Shown: positions 2,795 through 51,753 of the stretch, piece after piece | Layout: every line of letters begins with the position of its first letter | Position numbering within the stretch: the stretch's first letter is position 1 | Notes under the pieces: generated by a model | Told to the model about the DNA's origin: nothing | Databases searched by the model: none | Seen by the model: the letters and a program-made list of their open reading frames with translations, nothing else | Made by a program: the position numbers and the translations under genes | Source: Candidatus Doudnabacteria bacterium | GTDB taxonomy: Bacteria; Patescibacteriota; Doudnabacteria; UBA920 | DNA: 64,000 nucleotides | Direction of reading: 5' to 3' | Assembly: GCA_023245995.1 (NCBI GenBank) | Contig: JAHFJH010000003.1 | Location: forward strand, 1,585 to 65,584

Positions 2795-3703
2795 ATGCAA
2801 AATAGGTTAGCCATTGGTGTTTGCGCAAAGAATGAAGAAGGGGGCATTGCGACTTGCCTTACGAGTATCCTAAAATCTGCGAACAGATTATCTTGTGACT
2901 GGAACCTATACATATGCGTAAACGGATCTACGGATTCTACTTTGGTACAAATTCACAGATGGATAACAAAAACGGGATTCCAATGCAAAGTGTTAGTGCT
3001 GCCGCATGCAAACCTAGTTGAAGCCCAGAGATGCATTGTGAACCAAGCAGTAGTAGACAAATGTAACTATTACGGATTTATTGACGCTGACACCAAAATT
3101 CACAAATACTGTATCCCCTATCTTATGGATAGAATTGTTAAAAATAAAAACATCAAAGCAGTTTACGGGCTATCCATACCTTCCAAAACGCATAAGCCAA
3201 CCCTCATTGAAAGGATAATGAATAACTATGACCAACCGAAAGCAGAAGTGTACTCTGCGCGCAAACACCTACACGGCAGAGCCTTTATCACCACAGACTG
3301 GAATATTCCCAAAAATATAGAAGAACCGCTGATTTGCGATGATATTTATCTCTCGTGCTATTTACTAAAAAAATATGGAGAACAGAGCATACAAGGCGTT
3401 GAGAATGCACAAGTTCAATTTAAACAAATTAGATCGTTTGAAGACTACTATAAGCTCTACAAAAGACATAAGCTTGAAAAAGACAAGGTATTAAAAAACT
3501 ATAACGAATTTAAGACATTGCCCACAGATCAAGTGTATCGACAATTCTTACCTAAAAACCTTTTACACGACTCATTGAAAAACGGCCTGTTATGGGTGCT
3601 TCTGTTAGGCATAAAACAAGTAGCGAGTTATAGGTTGACCATAGAAAAGCTCTTTTACCCACACGTAAAGCCTCAATGGGAAGAAACACTAACCAGTAAG
3701 TAA
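2795..3703 (+). CDS. family-2 glycosyltransferase (GT-A fold)
   Basis: The N-terminus IGVCAKNEEGGIATCLTSI resembles the GT2 '.v.IPa.NEe..i...l.S' start. A DxD-type GFIDADT motif is also present. Length is 302 aa. Confidence 0.55.
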   Translation: MQNRLAIGVCAKNEEGGIATCLTSILKSANRLSCDWNLYICVNGSTDSTLVQIHRWITKTGFQCKVLVLPHANLVEAQRCIVNQAVVDKCNYYGFIDADTKIHKYCIPYLMDRIVKNKNIKAVYGLSIPSKTHKPTLIERIMNNYDQPKAEVYSARKHLHGRAFITTDWNIPKNIEEPLICDDIYLSCYLLKKYGEQSIQGVENAQVQFKQIRSFEDYYKLYKRHKLEKDKVLKNYNEFKTLPTDQVYRQFLPKNLLHDSLKNGLLWVLLLGIKQVASYRLTIEKLFYPHVKPQWEETLTSK

Positions 3704-42904: not shown

Positions 42905-43110
42905 GTATTTATTATACCAATAAAAAAACTCATCTCTAAATATAATCACTTACATTTAGGGACGAGTCTTTAAGCCCGCGGTTCCACCCTGTTTACCCCA
43001 CTTAGCGGGATCATCTTTATTCAGTTTCAGCTCCAGCGTGCCACCGCCTTCATAGCTACTGTTAGTATAGCCTCCGAACTAAAGCGTGTCAAAAATTATT
43101 AAACACCCAA
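42905..43110 (-). promoter_or_regulatory. T-box riboswitch leader (glycine-specific) controlling glyS
   Basis: The minus-strand RNA contains the T-box sequence AAACAGGGUGGAACCGCGGG (consensus AAnnnGGGUGGnACCGCG). The UGGA bulge is complementary to the tRNA-Gly 3' UCCA. An overlapping terminator (ACUCGUCCCUAAAU...AUUUAGAGAUGAGU + UUUUUUU) lies directly before the glyS ATG. GGC triplets are present in the stem I region. Confidence 0.75.
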
Positions 43111-43123
43111 TCGGGTAATGATG

Positions 43124-43651
43124 CTACGCAGTATAAGCTTTGATTTGCTCATATAATAAATCAATATTATCGCTACTCCACAGCCATCGCTTTAATTCAG
43201 CGACTTTAATTCCATCTACTTCCAACACTGTGGGATAATGGGAACCACCTTTTGGTGTAATCAAAGGGCGAGGTGTATCGTACATCCTCACCGACCTCTT
43301 GTTCATCTGGACCGTAATAAAATTTCTATTTTTTCTGGCAAATAAATTACTAATAGACAATACTTTGGGCAAAGCATTTGGCTCACCATCTTCCACAAAA
43401 GCATAGGTGCCACCTAAACGTTCCGCAAGCACTAGCATAAGCTGCGCGCGTTCTCGTACACTTACCATGGCAAAAGTTAGATACATTACCAACGCTATGG
43501 GTATCCAGAAAATGTAGATCTTGTCGAACTCCAAACCATGCGAAAGTTGGTATAGGGTAATGCCAAGAAGAAGCACAACAAACGCTATGTTCACAATAAG
43601 GCTCTTCATAAATACACTGGCCGGCACCCGCTCCGAGTTTGGAATTAGCAA
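43124..43651 (-). CDS. hypothetical membrane protein
   Basis: 175 aa with two N-terminal TM helices. No motif recognised. Confidence 0.45.
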   Translation of the reverse strand: MLIPNSERVPASVFMKSLIVNIAFVVLLLGITLYQLSHGLEFDKIYIFWIPIALVMYLTFAMVSVRERAQLMLVLAERLGGTYAFVEDGEPNALPKVLSISNLFARKNRNFITVQMNKRSVRMYDTPRPLITPKGGSHYPTVLEVDGIKVAELKRWLWSSDNIDLLYEQIKAYTA

Positions 43652-43805
43652 CTAGGGCAACAAGATTAGCGTCCCAGAAGGAACCGTGAAGATTCCTTGG
43701 GAACATTGAAAAATTTTGAACCTTTTACAATAAATAAAACGAAATGCAGTTCTCAGAGGATCCTTGAGGGCTGTTCTAAAAATTTAAAATATAAACACCT
43801 TTGGG

Positions 43806-44777
43806 CTATTTATCTTTCTCAATGAGCATTGGGTCACTGTCAAAAGAACCAATGAAATAGAAGCGATAATTTAGATACCCTGCAATTCTTTCCACGCGAG
43901 AAAGTATTCCATAAATTTCGTTTCCTAATTTATACTCCTCTGTATTTGTCTTTACTGTACCTTCACCAAAAATACTTTTAGCTTCAGTTTTATCTATAAC
44001 AAAACCGTGGTCTTTGTATTCATTAACTAACTTTTTTGCAATATCCGCAGGATTTCCGCTAAGTGTATCCTTATGACTATTTAATAACCGTTCGGCGTAT
44101 TGTGCCACGGATTCTGCCGCCCTCTCATAATATCCAATTTGAATAGGCTCTACTGAGTATTCTAAATACCTCGCAAACATCTGTGCAGATTTGGGCATTT
44201 TACTCACTAGACTAGCTATGTGCTCAATCGAATATTTCAAAGCTAAAGCTGGCATTCCATTAATCTGCAAATCTATTGGACCTAATTCACTTAAGCTACC
44301 CATATGTATCTCATTTGCGGCACTAGCCAACAAAGTTGCTGCTGATTTTGCATACCTAGGGACGACAACTACAAACCTTCCATTACTGGACTCTCGGCAC
44401 AACTGACCAATTAAATAAGCTGCTCCAGGCTCTCCTCCATTGGAAAGCAATATTAGAAGCAAGGACTTCTCTTTGTCTTTTAAAGCAGTTATGGCTTGAT
44501 AAATTCTGTCTGAGTCGCTTTTAACCATGACAATATTATCGTACATTACGAGAATATTATAATTCTTTTCACAGGTATATTTTGCAGCAGACTGTTTTAA
44601 GTGATTGGATAATAATTGGTTGAATTTCTTTTTATCTTCTTCACTTGCTTTTTTGCCATAGCCTCCGACTAATGCTGTCAATACATCGTCGTAAGTAACT
44701 TCTAATGAAGCAGACCCTTCTATGTCTGCTGGTGCACTAGGACTTATTTCTGGTTGTACAGGAATTTGAGCGTCCAT
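43806..44777 (-). CDS. ClpP/crotonase-fold serine protease (S49/SDH-family-like)
   Basis: LLILLSNGGEPGAAYLIGQL...VVVPRYAKSAATLLASAANEIHMG resembles the SppA/NfeD/SDH-proteinase active-site region. Confidence 0.55.
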   Translation of the reverse strand: MDAQIPVQPEISPSAPADIEGSASLEVTYDDVLTALVGGYGKKASEEDKKKFNQLLSNHLKQSAAKYTCEKNYNILVMYDNIVMVKSDSDRIYQAITALKDKEKSLLLILLSNGGEPGAAYLIGQLCRESSNGRFVVVVPRYAKSAATLLASAANEIHMGSLSELGPIDLQINGMPALALKYSIEHIASLVSKMPKSAQMFARYLEYSVEPIQIGYYERAAESVAQYAERLLNSHKDTLSGNPADIAKKLVNEYKDHGFVIDKTEAKSIFGEGTVKTNTEEYKLGNEIYGILSRVERIAGYLNYRFYFIGSFDSDPMLIEKDK

Positions 44778-44785
44778 AATAAAAC

Positions 44786-45106
44786 TTACTTTTTAAAACT
44801 TTTTAAATAATTTTCATACCAACCATCTTCGTTTGATAGAAATTCTTGAAAACTTTTTTTTAACCATTCGACGTATTCGGATTGGTCAAACCAGCCTTCT
44901 TTTTTTTCTTGCTCACTAGGATTTTCACCAGTCCAATCCAACTTTTCCTGTACCAACCCATAGAAAGTGCTTTGTGGTAAGGTTAAGGCATCTTCTGGAA
45001 TCTCTTCAAGGTAGTAATTGTAATATTCCTTTTCAAATTCTGGGACAGTCCATTTATTTGAAATTAAGTTATTTATCTTTTCTGCAAGGATATCTTTATG
45101 ATTCAT
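44786..45106 (-). CDS. small acidic W/Y/E-rich protein; candidate immunity protein for the upstream RHS C-terminal toxin
   Basis: 106 aa, 6 nt downstream of the toxin cassette's stop. Composition is typical of polymorphic-toxin immunity proteins. Confidence 0.45.
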   Translation of the reverse strand: MNHKDILAEKINNLISNKWTVPEFEKEYYNYYLEEIPEDALTLPQSTFYGLVQEKLDWTGENPSEQEKKEGWFDQSEYVEWLKKSFQEFLSNEDGWYENYLKSFKK

Positions 45107-45112
45107 AATTTA

Positions 45113-45931
45113 TTATTTTAATGGTGTAAACCTTCCATTTGCAATACCATTTTTCACATTTTCGACTGTATTAAGTCCAGCTGAAATTACTCTAGTCATT
45201 TCAGGATTGGTTGTAATTCTAATAAATCCTTCACCGCCATCAGGCCTTGCAATCCATGTATTAATATTTCCGCTGTTCCCATTATCTACAAATTTTTGAG
45301 TACTATTAGAAGCTTGATTGAGTATGTCGTTAGTACTTAAACCAAATTTTTGAGATAATGAATCTAATTTTTGTTGTGCAGATGATACAACTTGCAAGTC
45401 TCCAAAATTTGTAAGACGAGGCGCGACCTGAGAAACCTCATTGGTAACTTGAGTTGCCTGGTTACAGAAGGCTACGCAAGTTCCGCCTAAGGTGCTGATA
45501 CCAGCGGCACCTAAACCATACAATACTCCGGCAGCTCCTCCTGCTGCAATTCCCACTCCTCCAACTGCATAAGCTACTCCAACATGGTTAGTTGCGTAAT
45601 TAAATACCGGATCATATTGAGCGTAAGTATTAGCTGCATTTCCTACACTGACAAACCAAGGTGCATTTATGGAATTAAACGGATTCCATAATTGGCCTGT
45701 AGGATCATTATACAATATTGGGTTATTTCTTGCATAACTATAACTATTTAGGTTCTGCGGGTCGGAGAGGAAGACAACTAACTTCTGTTGGGTAATAGCT
45801 TTTAATTGTTGGTTGTCTCCAATAGCGAGGAAGGCCTGGTCCTGAGAAATAAACCTTCCAGTAGTCGGATTTTGATAGCGAGCATTATAATAATTTAAGC
45901 CAGTGCCTGCGTCATACTCCTGCCCCGTGAA
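45113..45931 (-). CDS. orphan RHS/YD-repeat C-terminal fragment carrying a polymorphic toxin domain; no N-terminal RHS body and no ATG
   Basis: The open frame runs from the tgt stop codon and reads FTGQEYDAGTGLNYYNARYQNPTTGRFISQDQ...SYSYARNNPILYNDPTGQ. That is the terminal YD repeat followed by the RHS core-end motif Yx[YF]xxNNPxxxxDPxG. After it comes a roughly 195-aa variable C-terminus containing a glycine-zipper-like segment (VGVAYAVGGVGIAAGGAAGVLYGLGAAGISTLGG). The track ORF 45113..45715 only starts at an in-frame TTG. Confidence 0.75.
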   Translation of the reverse strand, partial: FTGQEYDAGTGLNYYNARYQNPTTGRFISQDQAFLAIGDNQQLKAITQQKLVVFLSDPQNLNSYSYARNNPILYNDPTGQLWNPFNSINAPWFVSVGNAANTYAQYDPVFNYATNHVGVAYAVGGVGIAAGGAAGVLYGLGAAGISTLGGTCVAFCNQATQVTNEVSQVAPRLTNFGDLQVVSSAQQKLDSLSQKFGLSTNDILNQASNSTQKFVDNGNSGNINTWIARPDGGEGFIRITTNPEMTRVISAGLNTVENVKNGIANGRFTPLK

Positions 45932-47176
45932 TTATTTTTGTTCCGTATAATCTTTAAACTCAACAAGCATCTTTTCAAAGTAGTCGTATTGTATAGCGTT
46001 GCGAATCTTTTCCATAAAGTTTAAGTAGAAACGCAAGTTGTGCATGGTTGCAAGACGCTCGCCTAAGGGCTCTCCTGTTTGGAACAGGTGACGCACATAG
46101 GCGCGGGTATGATGCAGACACGCGTAGCAGTTGCAGGTGGCGTCTATAGGCGTAAAGTCTTCTTTGTGCTTTTCAAGCCTGATATCAATTGTTTCGTACC
46201 CTTCTATAAATCTACTGGACAGTTCGTCATTGTCTAACGATACCTGTCCGTTATCAGGCGCAGCCCGACGTAGCCTTGGCGAAGTTGGGTCAATTTCCAC
46301 TTGCTTTGCCACATATAGCCTTCCATGCCTTGCTTCCCTTGTCGGAATAACACAATCAAACGTATCACACCCGCGGGCTACGGCCTGAATAATATCGTAA
46401 GGAGTACCTACCCCAAGTAAATGTTTAGGTGCATTTTCCGGCAAATGAGGAACAGCGGACTCAACTGCAAGCATCATTTCCTCATGTGGCTCCCCTACTG
46501 CAACACCACCAATAGCAAAACCTTCGAAGCCCAAAGCTACCATGTCCTGCGCCGATTGTTTTCGTAAATCCGGAAAGCTTGCACCTTGCACTATACCCCA
46601 AAGTTTTTGTCCGGGGTTTACTGGGTCGCCGTCTACAATAATTTTTTGATGCTCTTTTACTGCGCGCTCCGCCCAGCGTTTGGTTAGGGCTATGGACTCG
46701 AGGCTTCTTTCGTGCTCGAAAGGGAACCCAGGAAAGTCGTCTAAAATTAAGGCCACATCGCTTCCTAAGTTTGCCTGTATGTCTACCGACTTCTCAGGTG
46801 ACAAAATTTCATGTTTACCGTCCATGTCAAACTGGAACATGACACCAACTTCCATGGTCTTTCGCATTTTTGCCAAAGAGTAAACTTGAAACCCGCCAGA
46901 GTCGGTAAAAATTGGTCCATGCCAATTCATAAACTTATGCAAGCCACCGGCTTTGTAAATAAGTCCGTCACCAGGCCTCTGCCACAAGTGGTAGGTATTT
47001 GCTAACACCATAGAAGCACCCCAAAATTTTAGCTCTTCACTAGTAACTGCTTTTACAGTACCGCGAGTACCAATAGGCAAAAACTGTGGCGTATGTACGT
47101 CACCATGCGCTGTATGTATAACGCCCTTCCGTGCGCGTGACGACGGATCCTTTTTTTCAATTTCAAAATAATCCAT
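45932..47176 (-). CDS. tgt: queuine tRNA-ribosyltransferase
   Basis: TGT motifs including the zinc site CxCxxC...H (CNCYACLHHTRAYVRHL), a catalytic Asp region and LANTYHL. Confidence 0.92.
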   Translation of the reverse strand: MDYFEIEKKDPSSRARKGVIHTAHGDVHTPQFLPIGTRGTVKAVTSEELKFWGASMVLANTYHLWQRPGDGLIYKAGGLHKFMNWHGPIFTDSGGFQVYSLAKMRKTMEVGVMFQFDMDGKHEILSPEKSVDIQANLGSDVALILDDFPGFPFEHERSLESIALTKRWAERAVKEHQKIIVDGDPVNPGQKLWGIVQGASFPDLRKQSAQDMVALGFEGFAIGGVAVGEPHEEMMLAVESAVPHLPENAPKHLLGVGTPYDIIQAVARGCDTFDCVIPTREARHGRLYVAKQVEIDPTSPRLRRAAPDNGQVSLDNDELSSRFIEGYETIDIRLEKHKEDFTPIDATCNCYACLHHTRAYVRHLFQTGEPLGERLATMHNLRFYLNFMEKIRNAIQYDYFEKMLVEFKDYTEQK

Positions 47177-50757: not shown

Positions 50758-51753
50758 ATGCAAGATAATGTAGAAAAAAATAGGCTACAAAAATACATTC
50801 GCGAGTTTCTGGAGTACTGTGAGATAGAAAAAAATAAGAGCAACCGAACTATTAGCAACTACGAACACTACCTTGGCAGATTTAGTAAATTTGCTAGCTC
50901 AGAAAGCGTAACTAAACCTGAGCAAATCAAATTGGAACTCGTCCGCAAGTACAGGCTCTACTTAAACAGATATGTAGACGATAAGGGCAACAAGTTAAAG
51001 CTCATCACCCAGAACTACCATGTAATAGCCCTCCGGGCTTTCCTTAAATACTTAAGTAAGAACGATATAGAAACTCTTGCACCAGAAAAAATAGAACTTG
51101 CAAAAAACCCTAGCCGCCAAATAGAAGCCCTAGAGCAAGACGAACTTGCAGGAGTAATGCAAGCAGTCGGCCAGGAACAAGAAGAAATTTTACGCCTGCG
51201 CGACCGCGCCATTTTGCTTACTCTATTTTCTACCGGTGTTCGTATAAGCGAACTAACTGCGCTAAAACGAGAAATGGTCAACGTAGACCGCGGCGAATTT
51301 ACCGTGCGGGGAAAAGGTGACAAACTACGTCTAGTATTTCTTTCACCCGATGCAGCAAACGCAATAAAGGCATATTTAAAAAAACGGATAGATAACCATC
51401 CGGGACTATTTATTGCCCACTCCAACATAGGAAAAGGTAAAGCAATGGAAGCAGAAATAACAGCGCAAGGTTTTAAGCGCTCGGAAAAAAACGACGGCAA
51501 GGCAGCTGGTCTATCGGCTAGAAGTATACAAAGACTTATACATAAGTACGCAATGCTTGCTGGCATTACCCACCACGTATCCCCTCACACTTTTCGCCAT
51601 AGCTTCGCAACAGATCTTTTGAGAAACGGCGCGGACATTCGAAGTGTACAAACCATGCTTGGCCACGCTAGCATTACCACAACACAAATTTACACCCATG
51701 TCACAAACGAAGGCCTACGCGAAATTCACAAAAAATTCCACGATAAAAAATAG
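50758..51753 (+). CDS. tyrosine site-specific recombinase (XerC/XerD / phage-integrase family)
   Basis: Catalytic residues in context: ...RDRAILLTLFSTGVRISEL..., HTFRHSFATDLLRNGADIRSVQTMLGHASITTTQIYTHV (R..H-R-H...Y). Confidence 0.85.
   Translation: MQDNVEKNRLQKYIREFLEYCEIEKNKSNRTISNYEHYLGRFSKFASSESVTKPEQIKLELVRKYRLYLNRYVDDKGNKLKLITQNYHVIALRAFLKYLSKNDIETLAPEKIELAKNPSRQIEALEQDELAGVMQAVGQEQEEILRLRDRAILLTLFSTGVRISELTALKREMVNVDRGEFTVRGKGDKLRLVFLSPDAANAIKAYLKKRIDNHPGLFIAHSNIGKGKAMEAEITAQGFKRSEKNDGKAAGLSARSIQRLIHKYAMLAGITHHVSPHTFRHSFATDLLRNGADIRSVQTMLGHASITTTQIYTHVTNEGLREIHKKFHDKK

Follow-up and report, generated by a model that had tools for sequence, protein, structure and literature searches.

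A probable solitary orphan rhs-CT/immunity module in the tgt-glyS interval of a Doudnabacteria-like Patescibacterium

The DNA considered here is a 64,000-nucleotide stretch (hereafter the window) from a contig of Candidatus Doudnabacteria bacterium, and our subject is the minus-strand segment 44786-45931, which lies directly downstream of tgt and encodes the truncated end of an RHS protein followed by a small open reading frame (ORF). We consider it probable, at roughly 0.7, that this region is a solitary orphan module composed of an rhs C-terminal toxin part (rhs-CT) and its immunity gene, acquired horizontally and residing in the variable tgt-glyS interval of a Doudnabacteria-like Patescibacterium. 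It would correspond to one period of an RHS orphan array that has retained only about the last 80 core codons, up to the PxxxxDPxG demarcation, the stretch common to orphan cassettes and full-length rhs genes. The feature is real and of a fairly ordinary kind, and it is its place, solitary behind tgt, that is unusual.

Core end, bipartite tip and immunity gene

The minus-strand frame is open directly after the tgt stop codon (TAA, 45934-45932), as the initial annotation had read it, and its translation from 45931 to 45116 gives 272 sense codons. This frame opens with FTGQEYDAGTGLNYYNARYQNPTTGRFISQD, reaches SYSYARNNPILYNDPTGQ at residue 80 and continues for 192 residues to a stop codon. Its first 80 codons (45692-45931, minus strand) run from the last YD repeat to PILYNDPTGQ without a start codon and match the RHS repeat-associated core profile TIGR03696 of NCBIfam (E = 8e-15, 55.1 bits for a cut-off of 32.5) over model positions 19-76 of 76, the 5′ end being cut off. 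Such a score is well outside what chance would produce. Since it exceeds the curated cut-off and the match is truncated on its 5′ side, the fragment is a genuine core end missing that side; the profile search, whose failure would have refuted the initial annotation, thus bears out the core-end signature noticed there. The demarcation motif PxxxxDPxGL is present as PILYNDPTGQ at residues 71-80, with a Q instead of the final L. As also noted at the outset, no in-frame ATG precedes the toxin region in the translated fragment, the earliest alternative start being TTG 45715.

Among 5.8 billion protein clusters, 58 homologues were recovered; with few exceptions these are ‘RHS repeat-associated’ proteins of 180-470 amino acids (aa), and those with a named source come from Patescibacteria. 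For the best match, P0001, an identity of 80% extends from the core end through the first half of the tip. In locus L002, P0001 comes late in an orphan array located downstream of a full-length protein of 2152 aa and its immunity gene. This protein carries SpvB, FG-GAP, TcdB_toxin_midN, YD-shell and Tox-REase-7 domains, and its core end shares 91% amino acid and 83% nucleotide identity (270 nt) with the core end in the window. The same array arrangement occurs in other lineages, in L010, L096 and L102, of which L010 and L102 are named Patescibacteria genomes. Like these orphan modules, the fragment is 5′-truncated and devoid of an initiation codon yet retains core-end homology to full-length genes, and it is directly followed by a small immunity ORF that co-occurs with the same toxin type. 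The initial remark that such a module is unexpected in a tiny genome was overstated, given that the source-named homologues are Patescibacterial and that an RHS toxin with its immunity gene has already been recorded in a Saccharibacteria genome (PMC6031116). A further protein, P0025 (385 aa), displays a signal-peptide-like hydrophobic N-terminal segment, few YD repeats, a core end and a toxin tip, and may point to ‘mini-RHS’ proteins that are exported despite the lack of a complete shell.

The tip was taken as one novel domain of ~195 aa in the initial annotation, but it has two parts, of which only the last ~95 aa are the toxin proper. In an exhaustive HMMER search of the 192 residues following DPTGQ against 1.84 billion representatives, the 146 matches split into two sets, some covering residues ~1-90 only and most of them residues ~95-192 only. 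The N-terminal module of ~90 aa (45422-45691, minus strand) contains W..AN..Y..HP, a glycine-zipper hydrophobic stretch and CxAFC, and has no Pfam match. Its matches include RHS proteins of 1900-2040 aa, in which the segment is situated 100-180 residues before the C-terminus. The module is common to P0001, P0003, P0005 and P0008, whose C-terminal domains differ (DUF4258 in P0005 and P0008), and the full-length protein of L002 carries a divergent version ahead of Tox-REase-7; because it is shared across different C-terminal domains, the variable toxin corresponds to the last ~95 aa. Kyte-Doolittle hydrophobicity amounts to 1.0-1.5 across residues 115-155. The N-terminal module is probably a pre-toxin, membrane-interacting or translocation module, which would help the tip to engage or cross a membrane. 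This glycine-zipper pre-toxin module is typical of Patescibacteria.

The C-terminal toxin domain (45113-45421, minus strand; ~95-100 aa plus stop) is marked by the motifs GNIN, RPDG, FIR(I/V)T, RVISAG and NGIANGRF. Its matches are located nearly always at the extreme C-terminus and include RHS proteins of 1545-2009 aa. It has no sequence match in Pfam, NCBIfam or PDB, so that the first impression of a domain resembling nothing recognised held up in the Pfam check proposed with it. Four residues, D46, R68, S80 and G82, are invariant in a 42-sequence alignment. The AlphaFold2 model, of high confidence (predicted local distance difference test score 95.6), consists of two helices (H13-26, H30-38), a four-stranded meander (E43-46, E52-58, E66-71, E77-84), a helix (H86-94) and a short strand (E98-100). 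The BECR fold is defined by an N-terminal helical segment, a four-stranded meander, often a short fifth strand, and a conserved S/T in strand 4 (PMC3482391). The predicted structure has this layout, with the invariant S80 within E77-84, and the domain is probably of the BECR type (RelE/ParE/colicin D) and an RNase, as far as the model can tell. It could be a metal-independent RNase in the style of colicin D and RelE, most likely a tRNase or a ribosome-associated mRNase. A Foldseek comparison of the toxin model with the PDB gave no significant match.

The probable cognate immunity gene (44786-45106, minus strand) starts 6 nt past the toxin stop codon and encodes a 106-aa, all-helical, acidic and aromatic protein. 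Its homologues form nine clusters only. Wherever DNA is available (L010, L092-L094), they are found directly after the same toxin domain, with 49-75% identity. The 6-nt gap given in the initial annotation is correct, and the immunity assignment made there is supported. In L010 the homologue, 68% identical, follows P0002. In L092-L094 it is 71% identical and follows an uncalled toxin fragment without RHS core (L092 2084-2467), in which a compensating +1/-1 frameshift pair runs through the invariant FVDNGNSGNIN motif and disrupts it; the adjacent immunity gene is unimpaired, so that immunity has here outlasted the toxin. The ratio of non-synonymous to synonymous substitution rates (dN/dS) between the window and L010 is ~0.10 for the toxin domain and for the immunity gene alike, and both are under purifying selection. 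The immunity model matches the colicin D immunity protein (ImmD) and shows its helical-bundle fold. Moreover, although the toxin and immunity models were searched separately, both chains of one solved complex, 1TFK, were among the matches. Nothing else argues as strongly for a mode of action of the pair like that of colicin D and ImmD, the 106-aa helical bundle presumably blocking the toxin by direct binding.

Surroundings and origin of the island

The gene upstream, tgt (tRNA-guanine transglycosylase; 45932-47176, minus strand), is well supported (PF01702, 451 bits; TIGR00430, 427 bits) and lies outside the cassette. The junction zone (45929-45946, minus strand) presents a possible microhomology, ACGGAACAAAAATAATTC against the RHS core sequence ACAGAACAAAGAAAATAT. 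In tblastn and blastn, RHS-core similarity continues over the final codons of tgt for ~17 nt (TEQK* against TEQRKY); the blastn match to the full-length core of L002 extends to 45946, and the match to the L002 orphan P0001 begins at 45929. An in-frame Tgt-RHS fusion, which this similarity had brought to mind, was ruled out by the native Tgt C-termini of relatives. Tgt ends here in FKDYTEQK* and the end of the gene looks native, since the Tgt proteins of relatives end in DYT followed by 1-9 residues. The RHS-like similarity inside tgt is best read as, at most, junction microhomology or chance coincidence of sequence.

We compared 26 genomes with Tgt proteins 71-81% identical to the one here, namely metagenome-assembled genomes of Doudnabacteria and other Patescibacteria (L011-L035, L040). 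The pair PNPase-tgt is kept in all 26, and glyS follows tgt in 23 of them, those with contigs reaching that far; an M16 peptidase gene is usually also present past glyS where the contig extends. In these genomes, tgt and glyS are separated by 23 bp to 2.5 kb, with unrelated genes or no cargo in between. The RHS fragment, the 106-aa gene, the protease and the transmembrane ORF described below are missing from all 26. The ~3-kb island is thus lineage-specific. The GC content of the segment formed by the toxin C-terminal module and the immunity gene is 0.32, compared with 0.41 for the window and 0.46 for tgt, and ranks 6th from the bottom among 634 equally sized windows.

At the far end of the island, 43609-43787 (minus strand) is a remnant of an rhs-array spacer, which we call the leader: it is 81% identical to the 179 bp directly before the P0001 RHS fragment in L002. 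By blastn, window 43787 to 43609 corresponds to L002 9920-10098, and window 45929 to 45464 to L002 10099-10564. Leader and core-end fragment are therefore contiguous in L002 and permuted in the window, where the core end comes first, at the tgt stop codon, and the leader last, ending at the start codon of the next ORF. Given this swapped order, the island amounts to exactly one array period, circularly permuted with respect to L002. The leader is non-coding, as a second partial copy in L002 (6247-6292) has an in-frame stop; it has no Rfam match. A diverged copy precedes the orphan P0003 in L096 (~3067-3210). Within the arrays, a longer spacer comprises the leader as its 3′ part and, on the 5′ side, a block of ~190 nt, which starts exactly at the stop codon of an immunity gene (L002 5201-5393 and 9701-9900; L096 2776-2965), is 77-84% identical between copies and is absent from the window. 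A three-copy alignment of this block showed no shared ORF and no covariation, and it matched nothing in Rfam. A search of metagenome_contigs for the leader by exact degenerate pattern was negative, this collection evidently being without leader-bearing contigs.

The permutation could have arisen if the island were a circularised one-unit array cassette inserted by a single crossover downstream of tgt, a scenario that we regard as doubtful. The circle would have been opened at the boundary between leader and core end, and one crossover at a site downstream of tgt would create both junctions; the circular form would then contain a 43609|45929 join, from the leader to ACGGGGCAGGAG. If this were true, orphan modules of Patescibacteria would be discrete mobile cassettes, excised from arrays and landing outside rhs loci, and the ~190-nt block together with the leader could act as a recombination or expression element, loosely analogous to integron cassettes.

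Between the immunity gene and the leader lies a gene for an SDH-type ClpP-like serine protease (43806-44777, minus strand; PF01972, 44.8 bits for a cut-off of 31.3, profile positions 74-168 of 286), which also matches phrog_11747 (E = 4e-30) and reaches 58 bits with NCBIfam NF047768, below the cut-off of 250 of that model. The initial annotation had placed a ClpP-fold protease gene 9 nt after the 106-aa ORF: the gene is real, but the spacing is 8 nt and no link to RHS was found. The other toxin/immunity loci have no such protease, and the only relatives found (40% identity) occur in non-RHS contexts. It was consequently rejected as a defining part of the cassette and is treated as co-transferred cargo of the island. 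The locus L008, from the assembly of a different sample, covers window positions 46071 to 43963 and is identical to the window throughout the cassette, which makes it uninformative as a test of selection; allelic divergence is confined to the 3′ part of the protease gene. There, 45 of 46 substitutions fall within 43963-44121 (minus strand), in the last ~50 protease codons covered by L008, with 16 synonymous and 16 non-synonymous codon changes up to the point where the L008 contig ends, which points to a 3′ end that has recombined or exists in an alternative form.

The last element of the interval is a 161-aa transmembrane ORF (43124-43609, minus strand) with two N-terminal helices (hydrophobic residues 1-22 and 28-52). 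It found only itself among the 5.8 billion clusters and no match in family libraries, and is an ORFan. Beyond it, the T-box-like leader of glyS (42955-43062, minus strand; RF00230, 41 bits for a gathering score of 93, E = 1e-6) forms the conserved right-hand edge of the interval and carries a GGGTGGAACCGCG motif. Across Doudnabacteria-like genomes the tgt-glyS interval is a hot spot of lineage-specific cargo, and a membrane-anchored protein of ~430 aa recurs there in L020, L022, L029 and L040. On the other side, ~5 kb from the island and beyond PNPase and rpsO, a tyrosine recombinase gene (50758-51753, plus strand; Phage_integrase and SAM-like domains in the annotation of the source contig) likely encodes a housekeeping enzyme of the Xer type. 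A probable RNase cassette of the colicin D/E5/RelE type adjoins tgt (45113-47176, minus strand), whose product makes the queuosine-34 tRNAs, the ones cleaved by colicin E5 (PMC1669751). This adjacency is probably a coincidence, because the interval carries unrelated cargo in relatives.

Expression and alternative explanations

We suppose that the toxin is most likely silent and not deployed from this locus, since start codon, shell and export signal are all lacking. On the minus strand, no terminator-like site was detected from tgt to the end of the protease gene, so that the immunity and ClpP-like genes can share the tgt transcript. The current benefit of the module would most probably be protection when neighbours deliver this type of toxin. 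The toxin itself would be a silent spare, which could regain its function only if the ~240-nt core end recombined with a full-length rhs gene, should the genome possess one.

The YD/RHS repeat shell and the N-terminal region of a full-length RHS protein are missing, and tgt lies in their place upstream; the segment is a fragment and not an RHS protein. Several observations weigh against an orphan module of this kind. A tblastn search with eleven RHS proteins found no other RHS-like sequence in the 64-kb window, in keeping with the absence of an RHS body reported at the outset, and there is no rhs gene among the genes called within ~10 kb past either window end on the 138.7-kb source contig. 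Over this range the module does not occupy an array position downstream of a full-length rhs gene, as its relatives in L002, L096 and L102 do, and its role as a ‘spare part’ is consequently without a demonstrated partner. The description as a classic ‘orphan displaced CT-toxin’ fits insofar as the module is an orphan whose relative P0001 belongs to an orphan array, but not insofar as it implies a place right behind a master rhs gene. Moreover, gene callers give a 200-aa ORF from TTG 45715, four codons before DPTGQ (a product labelled ‘hypothetical protein’ in public records), and since neighbouring genes of the stretch are without obvious Shine-Dalgarno sequences, translation of the free tip from this codon is conceivable.

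Other difficulties concern the toxin and its partner. The domain has no sequence-level match to the Colicin_D, RelE and Ntox families of Pfam, and the colicin D family, with its profile and its [KH]K, Hxx[ED], [ST] and [TS]xxK motifs, does not include it, the catalytic His of colicin D being absent from the invariant residues. The similarity to ImmD is one of predicted fold only: no ImmD sequence-profile match, no Pfam match for the 9 members and no PDB sequence match were obtained. In addition, more distant toxin homologues (34-40% identical) precede small ORFs that are unrelated to the 106-aa family, and a comparison of profiles between the immunity family and these ORFs revealed no relationship. 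Differing downstream ORFs among distant homologues are usual for polymorphic toxins.

It is possible, though we lean against it, that the region is an immunity island with a dead toxin relic, in which only the 106-aa gene matters and the RHS fragment and tip are decaying debris in a genome without a full-length rhs gene. The lack of an rhs master in the window and nearby flanks would fit such a situation, and so would the frameshifted toxin beside an intact immunity gene in L092-L094 and the finding that E. coli EC93 expresses orphan immunity genes, which are protective (PMC3150448). Nevertheless, the 272-codon frame is intact with all invariant toxin residues present, and the toxin dN/dS of ~0.1 relative to L010 argues against decay, although this selection may predate the transfer; the search for rhs genes, furthermore, covered only the window and its ~10-kb flanks. 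The ORF called from TTG 45715 could also be taken for the toxin of an addiction (toxin-antitoxin-like) module, neutralised in the cytoplasm by the 106-aa protein and serving to stabilise the island or to act in abortive infection, not in inter-bacterial attack. A RelE/ParE-like fold, the commonest among type II toxins, the tight spacing of 6 nt and a promoter-like site just upstream of the immunity start would all suit this explanation. However, a promoter scan was not enriched over shuffles (14 sites against 10.9 +/- 2.8), there was no PADLOC match, the toxin precedes the immunity gene and is joined to an RHS core-end remnant, and homologous domains are found at the C-terminal end of RHS proteins and not in two-gene toxin-antitoxin operons, all of which makes addiction improbable.

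Even less credit can be given to the pore-forming or membrane-inserting toxin proposed in the initial annotation. On this reading the glycine-zipper region would kill and the C-terminal 95 aa would be accessory. It draws on the 40-residue Gly/Ala-rich segment with GxxxG-type spacing and moderate hydrophobicity, and on the conservation of the N-terminal module in many RHS tips of Patescibacteria. Yet the zipper lies in a separate module that precedes DUF4258, the restriction-endonuclease-like Tox-REase-7 and other domains, which is the behaviour of a delivery or pre-toxin part and not of a variable toxin. In addition, the immunity protein resembles ImmD and is soluble instead of membrane-bound, and its family tracks the C-terminal domain, since the L092 fragment, without RHS core and most of the N-terminal module, keeps its immunity gene. 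Finally, an assembly artefact, with the tgt/RHS junction as a chimeric join between reads of two organisms at a repeat, seems next to impossible. The related contig L007 does break inside the RHS core end, at 45879, which may mean that the core end occurs in several copies in that community. Nonetheless, the concern about chimerism raised at the outset is answered by the independent assembly L008, which reproduces the junction with a single base difference there, at 45930, and allelic differences further on. The exact 106-aa protein is encoded on the 138,735-bp contig, which also holds the junction and has the same gene order, and on shorter contigs from other samples, and the flanking synteny PNPase-tgt ... 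glyS-M16 is unbroken across the island.

Significance and comparison with known systems

The orphan module documents a traffic of polymorphic toxins in Patescibacteria, a group of extremely small bacteria, mostly episymbionts, whose means of antagonism have been little described. With it comes an unannotated RHS-borne toxin domain without a Pfam family, paired with an immunity family of predicted ImmD fold, as well as a glycine-zipper pre-toxin module. It also illustrates that a toxin/immunity module can strand beside a core gene, probably as acquired immunity, which calls for caution in annotation. Should they prove general, the conserved spacer and the permutation by one period would suggest that orphan modules move in the manner of cassettes.

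The closest known counterparts are the orphan rhs-CT/rhsI and cdiA-CT/cdiI modules of Enterobacteria (PMC3150448, PMC3967940), which are likewise 5′-truncated and devoid of initiation signals while keeping the demarcation region, PxxxxDPxGL for RHS as here and VENN in CdiA (PMC3150448). In these modules as in the one described here, the toxin tip is variable and the small immunity gene downstream has a start of its own. Unit-length modules are not new, as Poole et al. (2011, PMC3150448) described cdiA orphan modules conserved precisely from one VENN region to the next; what is new is a unit that has landed between housekeeping genes. Indeed, known orphans form arrays right behind the full-length gene, whereas the module here stands alone at a different locus, abutting the stop codon of a housekeeping gene. 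The Patescibacterium host, the additional protease gene and the spacer remnant further distinguish it from the orphans of Enterobacteria.

The full-length carriers of both tip modules have the architecture of a fused TcB/TcC-like RHS cocoon (SpvB + FG-GAP + TcdB_toxin_midN + RHS repeats); Bacillus WapA is a further known system of comparison. Unlike these cocoon proteins, the window has the last 80 core residues only, without shell, beta-propeller or N-terminal export region.

As for the toxin/immunity pair, Tox-ColD domains are known to occur on RHS and TcdB/TcaC-type carriers (PMC3482391). Colicin D and ImmD (PDB 1TFK/1V74) nevertheless show no sequence-level similarity to either family described here, and the catalytic set of colicin D ([KH]K, Hxx[ED], S, [TS]xxK) is not recognisable, there being no conserved His. 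For the fold, the systems of comparison are RelE/ParE and the BECR-fold CdiA-CT tRNases (E. coli NC101, PDB 5I4Q), although the fold does not fix the activity, since ParE members poison gyrase and do not cut RNA. RelE and ParE are free toxins encoded in two-gene operons with a DNA-binding antitoxin as partner, whereas the domain described here is the C-terminal tip of RHS proteins and its partner is predicted to be an ImmD-like helical bundle.

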